DNA from: a virus
Taxonomy: Duplodnaviria; Caudoviricetes
DNA: 64,000 nt
Direction: 5' to 3' (one strand)
IMG/VR virus record: IMGVR_UViG_3300017700_000931
Span: 1-64,000 of that record
Shown: in pieces, positions 13,134 to 58,557 of the stretch
How the letters are laid out: every line of letters starts with the position of its first letter
Position numbering within the stretch: the first letter of the stretch is position 1
Made by a program: the position numbers and the translations under genes
Notes under the pieces: model-generated
What the model saw: the letters and a program-made list of their open reading frames with translations, nothing else
What the model was told of the DNA's origin: nothing
Databases searched by the model: none

Positions 13134-13224
13134 TCCGCCCCGTGGGATTCGAACCCACATCCTATCGTTTAAAAGACGATGGCTTGTTCCCTTTCAGTAC
13201 TGCTTCCAATTCAGCTACGAGCGG
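13134..13224 (-). tRNA. tRNA-Lys(UUU) with expanded D loop
   Basis: AUCGU CU-UUU-AA ACGAU; about 17-20 extra nt in D region. Confidence 0.8.
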
Positions 13225-13229
13225 TTTAG

Positions 13230-13302
13230 TGCATCTAGTGGGCCTCGAACCCACACCCCTCTGGTTAAAAGCCAGATGCCCGTCCACTTGAGCTTTAGAT
13301 GC
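13230..13302 (-). tRNA. tRNA-Lys(UUU)
   Basis: UCUGG CU-UUU-AA CCAGA. Confidence 0.9.
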
Positions 13303-13317
13303 ATAATTTTTCAATTG

Positions 13318-13388
13318 TGCACCCGGAAGGAATCGAACCTTCGCCCACTGGTTAAAAGCCAGCTGCTCGACCTTCGAGCTACGGGTGC
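13318..13388 (-). tRNA. tRNA-Lys(UUU)
   Basis: GCUGG CU-UUU-AA CCAGU. Confidence 0.9.
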
Positions 13389-13431
13389 ATAGTTTATCTA
13401 TTGACACTCGTAACTTGAATAGCCGAGTGCC

Positions 13432-13476
13432 TTAACGTTTCTTTTTCTTTTTGCAGATAAATTTAGTTGTTTTCAT
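13432..13476 (-). CDS. poly-Lys leader peptide MKTTKFICKKKKKR
   Basis: 14-aa uORF followed by hairpin 13403-13431, then three tRNA-Lys. Confidence 0.65.
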   Translation of the reverse strand: MKTTKFICKKKKKR

Positions 13477-13505
13477 AATGTTTGTTTTTTATATTATTTT
13501 ATTAG

Positions 13506-13609
13506 TGGTTACTCAGGGATTCGAACCCAGCAGATAATTGAATCGTAACACCGATTCAAGATTATCCATTCTATTTTTAACGATAGAATACAGCCAATCT
13601 GTTATAACC
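13506..13609 (-). ncRNA. tRNA-shelled RNA (acceptor + T arm around branched insert)
   Basis: GGUUAUA/AGUAACC, GGGUUCGAAUCCC, two internal hairpins. Confidence 0.6.
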
Positions 13610-13614
13610 ATTTG

Positions 13615-13766
13615 TGAGTATGGGTGGAATCAAACCTAGATTTCTCCATTTACTTTACTCATAATTCACCTAATACGTACTTAGTGAATTACCCGTGTTT
13701 CAAACCTTAGCTGCGTTAGCCACACCCTCGGTGGGTGGCTCGATTCATCTCATCGAGAGCATACTC
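13615..13766 (-). ncRNA. tRNA-shelled RNA
   Basis: GAGUAUG/CAUACUC-A, GGUUUGAUUCC, three internal hairpins. Confidence 0.6.
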
Positions 13767-13772
13767 ATGTTG

Positions 13773-13843
13773 TGCACCATAAGGGAGTCGAACCCTTGCC
13801 ACCGACTTGGAAGGCCAGTGTGCTACCGTAACACCTATGATGC
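13773..13843 (-). tRNA. tRNA-Gly(UCC)
   Basis: CUGGC CU-UCC-AA GUCGG. Confidence 0.9.
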
Positions 13844-13885
13844 AATCATAGTTTTTAATTTTCACCAGAACTACAACTGGCTGAG

Positions 13886-13957
13886 AGCAACTAGTCAGAA
13901 TCGAACTGACATCCTAGGCTTGGAAGGCTAATATAATAACCATTATACGATAGCTGC
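13886..13957 (-). tRNA. tRNA-Gly(UCC)
   Basis: loop CU-UCC-AA, U73; imperfect anticodon stem. Confidence 0.8.
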
Positions 13958-14106
13958 ATTTATGCCTCTCTCTGCATCCGTCACACCCCATTTGTATTCT
14001 GTTAACCTTTGTAGTCTAAGTCGTTTGTTACGTTTATCTATTGCTAGATTCAACCATCATTAACTACGGTCCTAACGGTAAATCGGTGTCAAAAACCAGT
14101 ATACTT

Positions 14107-14391
14107 TTAATTTTTTGGTAATTTATCGATATTATCTGTAGAATCATTATTAGATTTAGATGATAAATATGGTATTAGTATTCCATTTTCATTCTTTCTA
14201 GATTTTGGAATCACGATAGATAATGTACCATCATCATTTTTTGTATAATATTCAAAATTAAAAATTATAATATTTCTAGCAATTATATCAGTTGTCATAG
14301 TATATTCACTATTACGTATTTTAACTTTGAAACTTATATTAACACCATTTTCTTCTTTCCTACTTATAAGGATTTTTTTGTTTTCTCCCAT
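14107..14391 (-). CDS. hypothetical protein
   Basis: 94-aa ORF inside tRNA operon 1; TATGTTTG upstream. Confidence 0.6.
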   Translation of the reverse strand: MGENKKILISRKEENGVNISFKVKIRNSEYTMTTDIIARNIIIFNFEYYTKNDDGTLSIVIPKSRKNENGILIPYLSSKSNNDSTDNIDKLPKN

Positions 14392-14518
14392 TTTTATTTT
14401 ATTTTTAAGGGGCTCGTTATAATTTGATTTAAATATACAACAAACATACTAAAGTTATTAAATTTAACAAGCTTTTTTGTACCTATTTTCTAATATATTT
14501 AGTTATAAAAGTCACCGG

Positions 14519-14590
14519 AGCAGTAGAGCAGAATCGAACTGCCGTCTGAGCCTTGGCAAGGCCCTGTAATAGCCACTATACGACTACTGC
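14519..14590 (-). tRNA. tRNA-Gly(GCC)
   Basis: GGGCC UU-GCC-AA GGCUC, U73. Confidence 0.9.
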
Positions 14591-14597
14591 ATTTTGT

Positions 14598-14669
14598 TGG
14601 AAGAAGAGGAATCGAACCTCAAAGCACCTAGGATAAGGGCTTCAATGCCCAGCTGTTCCCAACCTTCCA
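14598..14669 (-). pseudogene. tRNA-like RNA, 6-nt anticodon loop
   Basis: acceptor and T arm; GGGC AUUGAA GCCC. Confidence 0.55.
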
Positions 14670-14676
14670 ATTTTAG

Positions 14677-14748
14677 AGCTGTCTCCCAGAATCGAACTGG
14701 GTTCGCTAGTTTACAAGACTAGCACATCACCTTTTATGCTTAGACAGC
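14677..14748 (-). tRNA. tRNA-Thr(UGU)
   Basis: CUAGU CU-UGU-AA ACUAG. Confidence 0.9.
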
Positions 14749-14754
14749 GTATTA

Positions 14755-14842
14755 TGGAGCCTGTAGAGGGATTCGAACCCCCGATGAGATATTATCTTCT
14801 GGTTTACAAAACCAGTGCTATCGTCCACTAAGCGATACAGGC
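14755..14842 (-). tRNA. tRNA-Thr(UGU), long variable arm, encoded CCA
   Basis: CUGGU UU-UGU-AA ACCAG; 16-nt variable region. Confidence 0.85.
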
Positions 14843-14892
14843 ATCATGAATTTTTACCTCCTACAGCGGAGCTTAAATCCTAACAGCTTGAG

Positions 14893-14974
14893 TGGGGCAC
14901 ATAGGATTCGAACCTACTCAGCCGAAGCAACGGTTTTACAGACCGCCCCAACTCTCCCACGTTGGCGGTACCCC
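14893..14974 (-). tRNA. tRNA-Tyr(GUA)
   Basis: GCGGU CU-GUA-AA ACCGU; variable arm. Confidence 0.9.
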
Positions 14975-15043
14975 AATTTGTATTTTACCCAGCTAACTTG
15001 ACTAACGTGGTCAATGCTCAAAATACTAAAGTTCAAAACCTAG

Positions 15044-57256: not shown

Positions 57257-57328
57257 CGGACAGGGTCAGACTCGAACTGACATCCCCTCGCTTAACAGGC
57301 GAGTGTTTTACATTAGTACTACCTGTCC
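57257..57328 (-). tRNA. tRNA-Asn(GUU)
   Basis: CUCGC CU-GUU-AA GCGAG. Confidence 0.85.
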
Positions 57329-57385
57329 ATAGGTAAAAGAGCCTTGCACTCTATTTGGAAGTCACATCTATGCTTCTAAGTCAAG

Positions 57386-57459
57386 GGTGACTGACGGGAA
57401 TCGAACCCGCATTAACAGGACCACAACCTGTCGTGTTAGACCATTACACTACAGTCACC
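57386..57459 (-). tRNA. tRNA-His(GUG)
   Basis: G-1:C73; ACAGG UU-GUG-GU CCUGU. Confidence 0.92.
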
Positions 57460-57469
57460 ATATATTTTG

Positions 57470-57557
57470 CGGATAGAAAGAGATTCGAACTCTTGCAACG
57501 ATTCAACGTTCTACTGCCTTTCCAAGACAGCCTCTTTAGCCACTTGAGTACCTATCC
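57470..57557 (-). tRNA. tRNA-Ser(GGA)
   Basis: CUGUC UU-GGA-AA GGCAG; G73. Confidence 0.88.
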
Positions 57558-57563
57558 ATTTTG

Positions 57564-57645
57564 CGGAAGACAAAGTAATCGAAACCTGTACGATGTACGT
57601 ACCCCACGGGTTCAAGCCGTGTTTGCCACCTTGACGGTGCCTTCC
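57564..57645 (-). tRNA. tRNA-Ser(UGA), weak D and T arms
   Basis: CACGG CU-UGA-AC CCGUG; G73. Confidence 0.65.
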
Positions 57646-57652
57646 ATTTTTG

Positions 57653-57739
57653 CGGAGAGGGTGGGACTCGAACCCACACACCTCTAGGGCCTACGGTTTT
57701 CAAGACCGTTGCAGTTAGGCCAACTCTGCTTACCTCTCC
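57653..57739 (-). tRNA. tRNA-Ser(UGA)
   Basis: ACGGU CU-UGA-AA ACCGU; G73. Confidence 0.9.
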
Positions 57740-57741
57740 AG

Positions 57742-57829
57742 TAGACATGTATGAGATTCGAACTCATGGTCCCTACACGGGACACCTGTTTCACACAGGC
57801 CGCTTTAAACCACTCAGCCAACATTATCT
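57742..57829 (-). tRNA. tRNA-Ser(UGA)-like
   Basis: GCCUG UG-UGA-AA CAGGU (G33); bulged acceptor. Confidence 0.65.
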
Positions 57830-57830
57830 G

Positions 57831-57920
57831 CACACCCGTAGGGATTCGAACCCTCAGCCAATCGTAAGACTTCCGTAGAAACTGATTTGGAGCCAGCTGG
57901 TCACGCCAATGAGCGGGTGT
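57831..57920 (-). tRNA. tRNA-Trp(CCA), very long variable region
   Basis: A1-U72, G73; GCUGG CU-CCA-AA UCAGU. Confidence 0.7.
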
Positions 57921-57930
57921 GTATAAATTG

Positions 57931-58009
57931 CACGGATGGAAGGAATCGAACCCTCTAGACTTTCGTCACGGTTTTGGAGACCGCTGTCCCACCATAGGAC
58001 ATCACCCGT
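57931..58009 (-). tRNA. tRNA-Trp(CCA), variable arm
   Basis: A1-U72, G73; GCGGU CU-CCA-AA ACCGU; GAC GAAA GUC. Confidence 0.85.
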
Positions 58010-58020
58010 GTATTACCAAT

Positions 58021-58032
58021 ACGTCAAAGAAC
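58021..58032 (-). promoter_or_regulatory. boxA-like site
   Basis: GUUCUUUGACGU. Confidence 0.6.
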
Positions 58033-58065
58033 TATTGAATCTACATTTAGATTCACATTTTGTTG

Positions 58066-58137
58066 GGTGTAAGGACGGTACCGACCCGTCTTCTCTAGGT
58101 TCACAGCCTAGCACTTCACCTTAAAGCTTCAAACACC
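58066..58137 (-). tRNA. tRNA-His(GUG), atypical T loop
   Basis: CUAGG CU-GUG-AA CCUAG; G-1:C73. Confidence 0.78.
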
Positions 58138-58308
58138 ATTTATCTTAACAAATATAATCATGTTTCCATGTTCCTTTTTAAAAACCAGCTCACCATGATA
58201 TCCGGTGGCAATAGCTATTATTGTATATTTGTCAATTATCTTATCGAAATTTTTTTTAAAGTATTCCAACTTTTCACTCCCTAACTTTCTCACTAAATCC
58301 TCTTCCAT
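58129..58308 (-). CDS. hypothetical protein
   Basis: start MEEDL directly after the terminator. Confidence 0.5.
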   Translation of the reverse strand: MEEDLVRKLGSEKLEYFKKNFDKIIDKYTIIAIATGYHGELVFKKEHGNMIIFVKINGV

Positions 58309-58327
58309 AACCAAAAATTTTAAGCAC

Positions 58328-58356
58328 AAAAAAAGCTCGACCTTGTGAGTCGAGCT
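58328..58356 (-). terminator. attenuator terminator, operon 4
   Basis: AGCUCGAC/GUCGAGCU plus U tract. Confidence 0.9.
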
Positions 58357-58384
58357 AAATCCTTATTACCTATATCTTGTTACA

Positions 58385-58477
58385 TTATGATACTTTGGTT
58401 ATGGACATACCCGACTCGGTTGAAGAATTACGTCTCCAATTACTAATCGAAATCATATGTATGTGCATTGTCATCAT
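58385..58477 (-). CDS. attenuator leader peptide 4 (M/H/I/S/N/W/R sensor)
   Basis: MMTMHIHMISISNWRRNSSTESGMSITKVS. Confidence 0.85.
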   Translation of the reverse strand: MMTMHIHMISISNWRRNSSTESGMSITKVS

Positions 58478-58514
58478 TTTGTAAAAATTGTTTTGTTTAT
58501 TATTAAATATATCA

Positions 58515-58544
58515 CAAAGATACTAATGTTATTTGAATTAGCAA
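58515..58544 (-). promoter_or_regulatory. Bacteroidota-type promoter, operon 4
   Basis: TTGC ... TATCTTTG; within 53 bp identical to operon 3 promoter. Confidence 0.8.
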
Positions 58545-58557
58545 TGATTTTTGTGAA

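Follow-up and report, generated by a model that had tools for sequence, protein, structure and literature searches.

Putative multivalent leader-peptide attenuators upstream of four tRNA arrays in an uncultured phage

In enterobacteria, leader-peptide attenuators place a short open reading frame (ORF) with regulatory codons close to the promoter, ahead of RNA segments that fold into mutually exclusive 1:2, 2:3 and 3:4 hairpins, the last of which is an intrinsic terminator. Ribosome stalling in region 1 favors the antiterminator. Attenuators that monitor a single amino acid include trpL, hisL, leuL and pheL, and multivalent versions are represented by the ilvGMEDA leader, which contains Leu, Val and Ile codons, and the thr leader, which contains Thr and Ile codons. 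The pheST attenuator of Escherichia coli, with its pheM leader, places a component of the translation apparatus under the control of cognate-codon decoding speed. T-box riboswitches bind one uncharged transfer RNA (tRNA) directly through a single specifier codon and do not need the ribosome. Here, we analyze the first 64 kb (hereafter the window) of IMG/VR record IMGVR_UViG_3300017700_000931, a 362,532-bp single-contig virus record from an uncultured phage, in which four tRNA arrays are each preceded by a putative leader-peptide attenuator.

The phage leaders resemble the enterobacterial attenuators in having a promoter-proximal short ORF with regulatory codons, in their predicted set of exclusive hairpins with the terminator last, and in the predicted preference for the antiterminator when a ribosome stalls in region 1. 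As in the ilv and thr systems, one leader could sense several amino acids. They differ in that the regulated genes encode tRNAs instead of biosynthetic enzymes, such that the regulatory loop would close on tRNA supply, and in their range, which is at most seven amino acids per leader with all 20 covered by the four leaders. Moreover, the elements are phage-borne, carry a Bacteroidota-type promoter and have no sequence or Rfam relationship to the enterobacterial leaders, and the phage ORF, unlike that of trpL, extends through and beyond region 2. The pheST system is similar in controlling part of the translation apparatus through decoding speed, but it governs a synthetase, senses a single amino acid and is a cellular element. 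Like T-box riboswitches, the phage leaders would sense tRNA status and, ahead of genes for translation or amino-acid supply, choose between terminator and antiterminator. Judged by sequence, the phage leaders have every defining feature of the leader-peptide attenuator class, the 1:2 hairpin among them as a prediction, and what sets them apart is that the regulated genes are tRNAs and that four paralogous leaders partition the amino-acid alphabet. The sequence-only reading that first drew attention to this locus knew of no such attenuator on phage tRNA arrays, and our full-text literature searches likewise turned up no report of tRNA genes, whether phage or cellular, under leader-peptide control.

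Four tRNA arrays and their leader cassettes

tRNA genes were called with ARAGORN, and Rfam was used as a second source. The window has a G+C content of ~32% and carries nearly all of its genes on the minus strand. ARAGORN identified 53 tRNA genes, all on the minus strand, and Rfam confirmed these and added a few weak or atypical ones. All coordinates given below for window features also refer to the minus strand. Four arrays together serve all 20 amino acids, with each amino acid assigned to one array, as in the sequence-only reading. The operon 1 array (13229-15932) contains genes for Pro (two), Gln (two), Tyr, Thr (two), Gly (three) and Lys (two) tRNAs, and a weak tRNA-like match from Rfam or low-threshold ARAGORN lies at 13142-13198. 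The operon 2 array (30312-31540) encodes Phe (two), Glu, Asp (two) and Ala (two) tRNAs, together with an atypical tRNA-like gene that has a UUG anticodon and two weak tRNA-like matches. The operon 3 array (32129-33416) encodes Cys, Val (three) and Leu (six; anticodons CAA, UAA twice, GAG, AAG and UAG) tRNAs and a Leu-shaped tRNA(CAU). Finally, the operon 4 array (54932-58136) contains His (two), Trp, Ser (four), Asn (three), Arg (five), Ile (two) and tRNA(CAU) (three) genes and one weak tRNA-like match, and its amino-acid set is His, Trp, Ser, Asn, Ile, Met and Arg. Per unit, 8-18 tRNA genes lie downstream of the leader. A scan of the array regions revealed no further strong minus-strand terminators.

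The same layout is found four times on the minus strand, in the order promoter, upstream ORF (uORF), G+C-rich hairpin with a T-run and tRNA array, as the earlier reading had described. The promoters are of the Bacteroidota type, with TTG followed about 20 nucleotides (nt) later by TAnnTTTG, and the four copies are nearly identical. Each uORF begins with an ATG located 34-49 nt past the TAnnTTTG element, with an A-rich leader between them, and the A-rich start context is like that of the phage's own genes. The uORFs of operons 1-4 are 31, 29, 30 and 30 codons long. In all four leaders, a segment termed region 2 is complementary to the 5' arm of the terminator; the sequence-only reading had noted this complementarity, which we place at uORF codons 21-24. 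The terminator hairpin begins 26-32 nt past the uORF stop codon and consists of a 9-13 bp stem followed by seven to nine T residues; the hairpins of operons 1-4 span 16032-16003, 31587-31558, 33464-33438 and 58356-58334. Although 34 strong terminators were identified genome-wide, these four arrays are the only sites at which a terminator is combined with the promoter, the short ORF and the complementarity.

In operon 1, the promoter (16203-16232; TTG ... TATCTTTG, Bacteroidota type) precedes a 31-codon uORF (16058-16153), within which region 2 (16085-16093; codons 21-23) would provide the antiterminator strand, and the terminator (15996-16032) has a 12-bp stem and T-run with a predicted stability of -15.4 kcal/mol. 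The predicted peptide, mnlTfvTYQPKQYTQGGKPsrsGmlYlmGie (capitals denote in-set residues, meaning those that belong to the amino-acid set of the operon's own tRNAs), reads T Y Q P K Q Y T Q G G K P at codons 7-19. The operon 2 promoter (31751-31780) is followed by a 29-codon uORF (31616-31705) encoding mktvnniFDFAFEAAEADcrlgwssivis, with F D F A F E A A E A D at codons 8-18, region 2 at 31631-31642 (codons 22-25) and a terminator at 31551-31587 (stem -15.4 kcal/mol). Operon 3 has its promoter at 33616-33645 and a 30-codon uORF at 33489-33581, whose product would be mnnfVniVLLnsVLCLLVLeCssyVyVigs; codons 8-21 read V L L n s V L C L L V L e C, region 2 (33512-33520) is a 9-nt exact complement of the terminator 5' arm, and the terminator lies at 33429-33464 (stem -12.6 kcal/mol). 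The operon 4 leader comprises a promoter (58515-58544), a 30-codon uORF (58385-58477), region 2 (58409-58417; codons 21-23) and a terminator (58327-58356; stem -11.7 kcal/mol). Its peptide is MMtMHIHMISISNWRRNSSteSgMSItkvS, with M t M H I H M I S I S N W R R N S S at codons 2-19.

Each leader contains every amino acid of its own operon's set. At codon positions 5-19, in-set codons account for 13/15, 11/15, 11/15 and 15/15 positions in operons 1-4, which corresponds to a joint binomial p of ~1e-23 given genomic frequencies of 0.31, 0.23, 0.15 and 0.30 for the four amino-acid sets. The sequence-only reading had proposed a codon block built from the operon's amino acids at codons 4-19; the match is borne out, and the block itself extends over codons 7-19. 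When all 24 possible leader-to-array assignments were scored, the true assignment received 50 and the runner-up 29. Uninterrupted in-set runs reach 13, 11, 7 and 16 codons, compared to maxima of 9, 6, 5 and 9 in the genome's 252 long ORFs. The blocks also use an unusual variety of synonymous codons, with 39 distinct codons among 49 where phage codon usage predicts 31.0 ± 2.3 (p 0.0008). For example, Ala is spelled with all four of its codons, Glu, Gln and Lys with both of theirs, Leu with five and Ser with four, and Arg appears as AGA and CGT. This variety fits a checklist of codons or isoacceptors, and not a functional peptide.

Several tRNA genes depart from this scheme. Thr(GGU) at 9105, Lys(CUU) at 10386, a Phe tRNA at 26985 and a Phe-like gene at 25456 lie outside the arrays, as listed in the sequence-only reading, which did not include the UUG gene of operon 2 (31018-31087; G at position 33 by ARAGORN) among its exceptions. 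The same reading had called the operon 3 tRNA(CAU) (32303-32389) initiator-like. The long variable arm of this gene is of the Leu type, its D stem has 3 bp and a T1.T72 mismatch leaves 1:72 unpaired, and such a body is unusual for a Met, Ile or initiator tRNA. Because of the Leu-type variable arm it is not a standard initiator, and it may instead be charged by leucyl-tRNA synthetase and thus group with the Leu tRNAs. Atypical or degenerate tRNA-like genes were observed at 31018-31087, 25456-25530, 26787-26875, 30584-30653, 31191-31263, 13142-13198 and 55696-55772. They have 6-nt or G33 anticodon loops and poor stems (Rfam or low-threshold ARAGORN) and could be pseudogenes or tRNAs with altered anticodon loops.

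Leader folding and variation among relatives

In the ribosome-free minimum-energy fold, every leader forms a long 1:2 hairpin together with the terminator. The start of the sensor block, marked by a conserved ACATA (ORF nt 14-21), pairs in this hairpin with TATGT or TATTGT just past region 2. Of 25 leaders, 23 carry ACATA, 23 carry TAT(T)G and 22 carry both; the base of the 1:2 helix is invariant and hence gives no covariation signal. Because ACATA and TAT(T)G are shared, the leaders are homologous. The decision between hairpins was modeled co-transcriptionally by cutting the transcript just before the 3' arm of the terminator, which mimics the moment of choice, and by masking the nucleotides covered by the ribosome. 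In 12 of 12 leaders, the 5' arm is predicted to pair with region 2 when the A site is at codons up to ~16 and to be unpaired when the ribosome covers codons 17 to ~27. The predicted stabilities of the three alternatives are comparable, at -15 to -22 kcal/mol for 1:2, -15 to -25 kcal/mol for 2:3 and -12 to -15 kcal/mol for 3:4, and the spacing between region 2 and the 5' arm is near-constant among the four paralogs at 59-63 nt. These predictions match the classical 1:2 / 2:3 / 3:4 logic of attenuators.

Relatives were collected by scanning IMG/VR for the promoter and short conserved leader motifs and retrieving the matching records. Bare 14-mer scans yielded mostly chance matches, which were filtered on tRNA context downstream. 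One further contig, a Tara Oceans metagenome scaffold, was reached through homologs of a small protein encoded in operon 4. In total, we obtained ~35 homologous units on ~20 contigs from IMG/VR or metagenomes. The terminator stems vary among units (for example GCTCGAC..., GCCTTCC, CCCTCAGC, CCCAGC, CCTGACA, GCCTTGA and CCCACAAC), and region 2 varies with them. Duplexes between region 2 and the 5' arm have a mean stability of -11.7 kcal/mol for cognate pairs versus -7.7 kcal/mol for non-cognate pairs (21 leaders; permutation p<=5e-6), and the same cognate excess is found within 10 orthologous H/W/S/N/I/M/R leaders alone (p<=9e-5).

The sensor blocks of these relatives retain their match to the downstream genes. 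In-set codons make up 232/252 of the positions at codons 7-18 compared to 94/261 in the tail of the ORF (21 leaders; Fisher p 3e-43), and 139 of 180 codons at positions 5-19 can be decoded by a tRNA of the same operon (12 leaders from four genomes). Three versions of the Pro/Gln/Tyr/Thr/Gly/Lys leader differ by Q/T, Y/K, T/Q, K/T and P/G exchanges with zero out-of-set residues, and within-set exchanges in other orthologs include D/E and A/D. Thus, the peptides are conserved in set membership rather than in residue order. The leader ORFs of the relatives are 22-35 codons long, and one length difference between orthologs is exactly one codon. The confinement of the cassette to tRNA arrays, the region 2 covariation in 21 leaders and the within-set substitutions all support the attenuator geometry that the sequence-only reading had put forward.

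Most relatives share the same four-way amino-acid split and are thus uninformative about whether leader codons track tRNA content, a test that had been set before the relatives were compared. The contig G009 (IMGVR_UViG_3300033067_000559) has a different split, and its leaders match its own. One G009 leader carries the block L T n i L F V M T L T V L F Q F T Q T and is followed by Gln, Phe, Met, Thr, Val and Leu tRNAs. A second carries W H H I S N S N S N R I N S S and is followed by His, Asn, Ile, Trp, Ser and Arg tRNAs; this leader has no Met codon, and the Met tRNA is found in the Q/F/M/T/V/L operon instead. The third leader (C) contains Y, P, K, G, N, D and C codons and precedes Tyr, Lys, Asn, Gly, Pro and Asp tRNAs, to which a sister contig adds Cys. 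In the G009 leaders, the ACATA...TATG scaffold is retained and region 2 is still complementary to the terminator arm. By these shared elements they are homologs of the window's leaders, with sensor blocks that appear to have been rewritten along with operon content.

Other arrangements were observed among the relatives. Locus L117 carries the His/Trp/Ser/... attenuator and array in two tandem copies 1.5 kb apart (minus strand; leaders at 2908 and 4468 in the reverse-complemented, oriented locus), and the two copies have unlike terminator stems, each matched by its own region 2. In L072 (genome G002), an ORF for an HNH-type endonuclease lies between the Phe/Glu/Asp/Ala attenuator and the tRNAs, ~350-750 nt past the terminator. 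tRNAs with stop-codon anticodons occur inside attenuated arrays, namely UUA in the Phe/Glu/Asp/Ala operon of genome G001 (L005:6242-6314) and UCA on a Tara Oceans contig (L348:11028-11109). We considered whether the UUG gene of operon 2 is the ortholog of the G001 UUA gene, but the alignment gave no support for this relationship.

Proposed mechanism and competing explanations

From the cassette anatomy, the codon match, the exclusive pairings, the covariation between region 2 and the terminator arm and the tracking of a different split, we consider it very likely that each array is a transcription unit under multivalent ribosome-mediated (leader-peptide) attenuation, which would supply tRNAs on demand. 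Transcription would start at the Bacteroidota-type promoter and first produce a ~180-nt leader with its 29-31 codon ORF, in which codons 7 to ~18 form a multivalent sensor spelled in the amino acids of the downstream tRNAs. If decoding is fast, the ribosome would pass region 2 toward the stop codon, such that region 2 is either covered or re-paired with region 1 behind the ribosome; the terminator hairpin could then form and the RNA would end ahead of the tRNAs. If the charged tRNA for any sensor codon is scarce and decoding of that codon is slow as a result, the stalled ribosome would hold region 1 and leave region 2 free to pair with the emerging 5' arm of the terminator, allowing RNA polymerase to continue into the array. 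Because the products are the very tRNAs being tested, each leader would act as a negative-feedback supply controller for one amino-acid group. Such a leader would be blind to whether a tRNA is missing, cleaved or uncharged, and candidate triggers therefore include the phage's own AT-rich codon demand, loss of host tRNAs, tRNA-targeting defenses and starvation. In this scheme, we infer leader translation, the coupling of transcription to translation, the direction of the response and its physiological trigger.

Several observations weigh against this proposal. In several leaders, including that of operon 2, the equilibrium fold of the complete leader keeps the terminator at any ribosome position. 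Because the equilibrium model does not give a clean switch in all leaders, the argument depends on the order of events during transcription, as in classical attenuators. The models also suggest that a ribosome at the stop codon leaves region 2 uncovered, in which case termination is assumed to proceed through 1:2 refolding, and that a ribosome stalled at the last two or three sensor codons would mask region 2 itself. The correspondence between codons and tRNAs is imperfect as well. The C/V/L sensor block includes Asn, Ser and Glu codons, the operon 3 tRNA(CAU) and the operon 2 UUG gene have no sensor codon, Leu(CAG) in relative G007 is unpartnered in the available sequence, and the available part of the operon behind G009 leader C offers no match for its Ala, Thr, Gln and Val codons. 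Finally, two of the four leaders of G001, a complete genome of 353 kb, lack the ATG and most of the sensor block. In these truncated leaders (L003:10280-10440 and L006:2707-2870), an identical segment of promoter plus the first 12 nt of untranslated leader is fused to mid-leader sequence, and region 2 and the terminator are kept. Their 5' arms are paired at 0.86 and 0.99 in the co-transcriptional model, so the truncations should lead to constitutive antitermination in that model. They represent either a natural loss of control or an assembly artifact.

The G001 truncations also bear on an alternative explanation, in which the leaders are constitutive, their terminators leaky, and the uORFs either independent small peptides or chance frames whose match to the tRNAs is meaningless. 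Two leaders that have lost the ORF start and still keep the terminator are in keeping with this idea. We find it hard to credit, given the ~1e-23 chance probability of the codon match, the conservation of set membership and not residue order, the covariation of region 2 with the terminator arm and the restriction of the cassette to tRNA arrays. Another possibility is that the switch works without translation, with the codon block binding tRNA anticodons (in a T-box-like or other RNA) or a protein and the ORF being incidental. The products are indeed tRNAs, and T-box leaders likewise choose between terminator and antiterminator by tRNA status. Nevertheless, neither the T-box model (RF00230) nor any other Rfam family matched the leaders at gathering score in a search of the window, and leaders 1 and 4 searched at E<=1 gave no T-box hit and, apart from the Trp_leader score given below, none to another family. 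A T-box relies on a single specifier codon rather than 12, and the phage blocks comprise at least 12 contiguous in-frame codons after a conserved ATG in a gene-like start context, within an ORF whose length is held to 22-35 codons and whose orthologs differ in one case by exactly one codon. A translation-independent switch is thus very improbable. Separately, the Rfam Trp_leader model (RF00513) gave 17.7 bits on leader 4 against a gathering score of 41 (E 0.3), and we treated this as a chance match.

It is also conceivable that the leaders gauge general translation capacity, for example during host shut-off or after ribosome damage, with codon composition being secondary. The predicted hairpin logic follows ribosome position whatever the cause of the stall, and the genome's transfer-messenger RNA (tmRNA), signal recognition particle (SRP) RNA, aminoacyl-tRNA synthetase and Smr-domain genes are suggestive of broad translation monitoring. 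A general sensor, however, needs no operon-specific codon sets, and here the sets are exclusive between operons, preserved through substitutions and re-sorted together with the tRNAs in G009. Synonymous codons that are more varied than chance also argue against it, and we regard general monitoring as unlikely.

A small protein gene, neighboring genes and the role of phage tRNAs

The content assigned to operon 4 by the sequence-only reading can be extended by a 59-codon protein gene (58129-58308), which lies between the terminator and the first tRNA and thus behind the attenuator. Its 59-residue product is the sole protein encoded under any of the four attenuators, and the gene is kept at that site in 9 of 11 lineages. 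The consensus of the protein is ..LVRxLGxEK...FDKIVDxY...GYxGEL.F.KE.G...IFV.I, and it matches no Pfam or PHROG family. Only eight homologs were found among 5.8 billion proteins, and the alignment of the protein proved too variable to serve in a locus search. The AlphaFold model is confident, with a predicted local distance difference test (pLDDT) score of 87 and a beta-alpha-beta-beta arrangement, and comparison of this model with the PDB and the AlphaFold DB gave no match at E<0.3.

Other genes in and near the window are related to translation or flank the operons. An HslV-family peptidase homolog (58558-59175; PHROG E 7e-20) lies directly 5' of the operon 4 promoter, a neighbor shared only with G001, and a locus search that used this gene returned no related loci. 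Immediately upstream of the operon 3 promoter is a gene for a stand-alone Smr-domain protein of 74 residues (33705-33929; Pfam E 1e-5); some Smr domains are nucleases that act on collided ribosomes. A full-length class I aminoacyl-tRNA synthetase of the Glu/Gln type is encoded amid the outlying tRNA genes (10843-12459), with matches to the Pfam catalytic domain (E 3e-101) and to both anticodon-binding domains. At 24795-24890, Rfam reports a bacterial small SRP RNA with 40.9 bits, just over its gathering score of 40; if so, it would be unusual for a phage to carry a 4.5S-like RNA. Just beyond the window, a fifth copy of the tRNA-operon promoter is found at genome positions 70100-70800 (minus strand; L219:6100-6800). 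The ~500 nt behind it contain no ORF and no Rfam match and are followed by a tRNA-Met gene, and a tmRNA gene (Rfam 89.7 bits; genome 73052-73434, minus strand) lies 2.5 kb past that tRNA. When the leader 4 region was compared as DNA with 50,697 phage records, no match emerged, and a protein search with a 692-residue neighbor yielded distant partial matches only. By sequence comparison, a close cultured relative is absent among the phages searched.

It has been documented that host defenses can inactivate tRNAs or cleave them and that phage tRNAs can evade such defenses (PMC10264068, PMC11555353). The four leaders might together form a complete, self-tuning decoding monitor, with every amino acid assigned to one multivalent sensor, whose chief selective value would be as an inducible counter to such defenses, with the 59-residue protein as part of the response, although we hold this proposal tentatively and think it doubtful. 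If it is true, the monitor would read decoding capacity codon by codon for nearly every isoacceptor or wobble class, and only the deficient tRNA group would be topped up.

It has long been asked for what purpose phages carry tRNA genes and in what way these are expressed. The proposed roles, which are debated, include codon compensation, making up for host tRNAs that have been degraded and evasion of defenses directed at tRNAs (PMC10264068, PMC11555353). If the attenuation proposed here is true, it would be the first leader-peptide attenuation of tRNA genes found in the literature searched. The leaders are short, modular, putative natural sensors of the availability of defined tRNA sets and could be used in Bacteroidota to report tRNA depletion. 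The way they are re-sorted among relatives illustrates how a regulatory code can evolve together with gene content, and the attenuators, if they operate as proposed, would show that tRNAs are supplied on demand and not constitutively in these phages.

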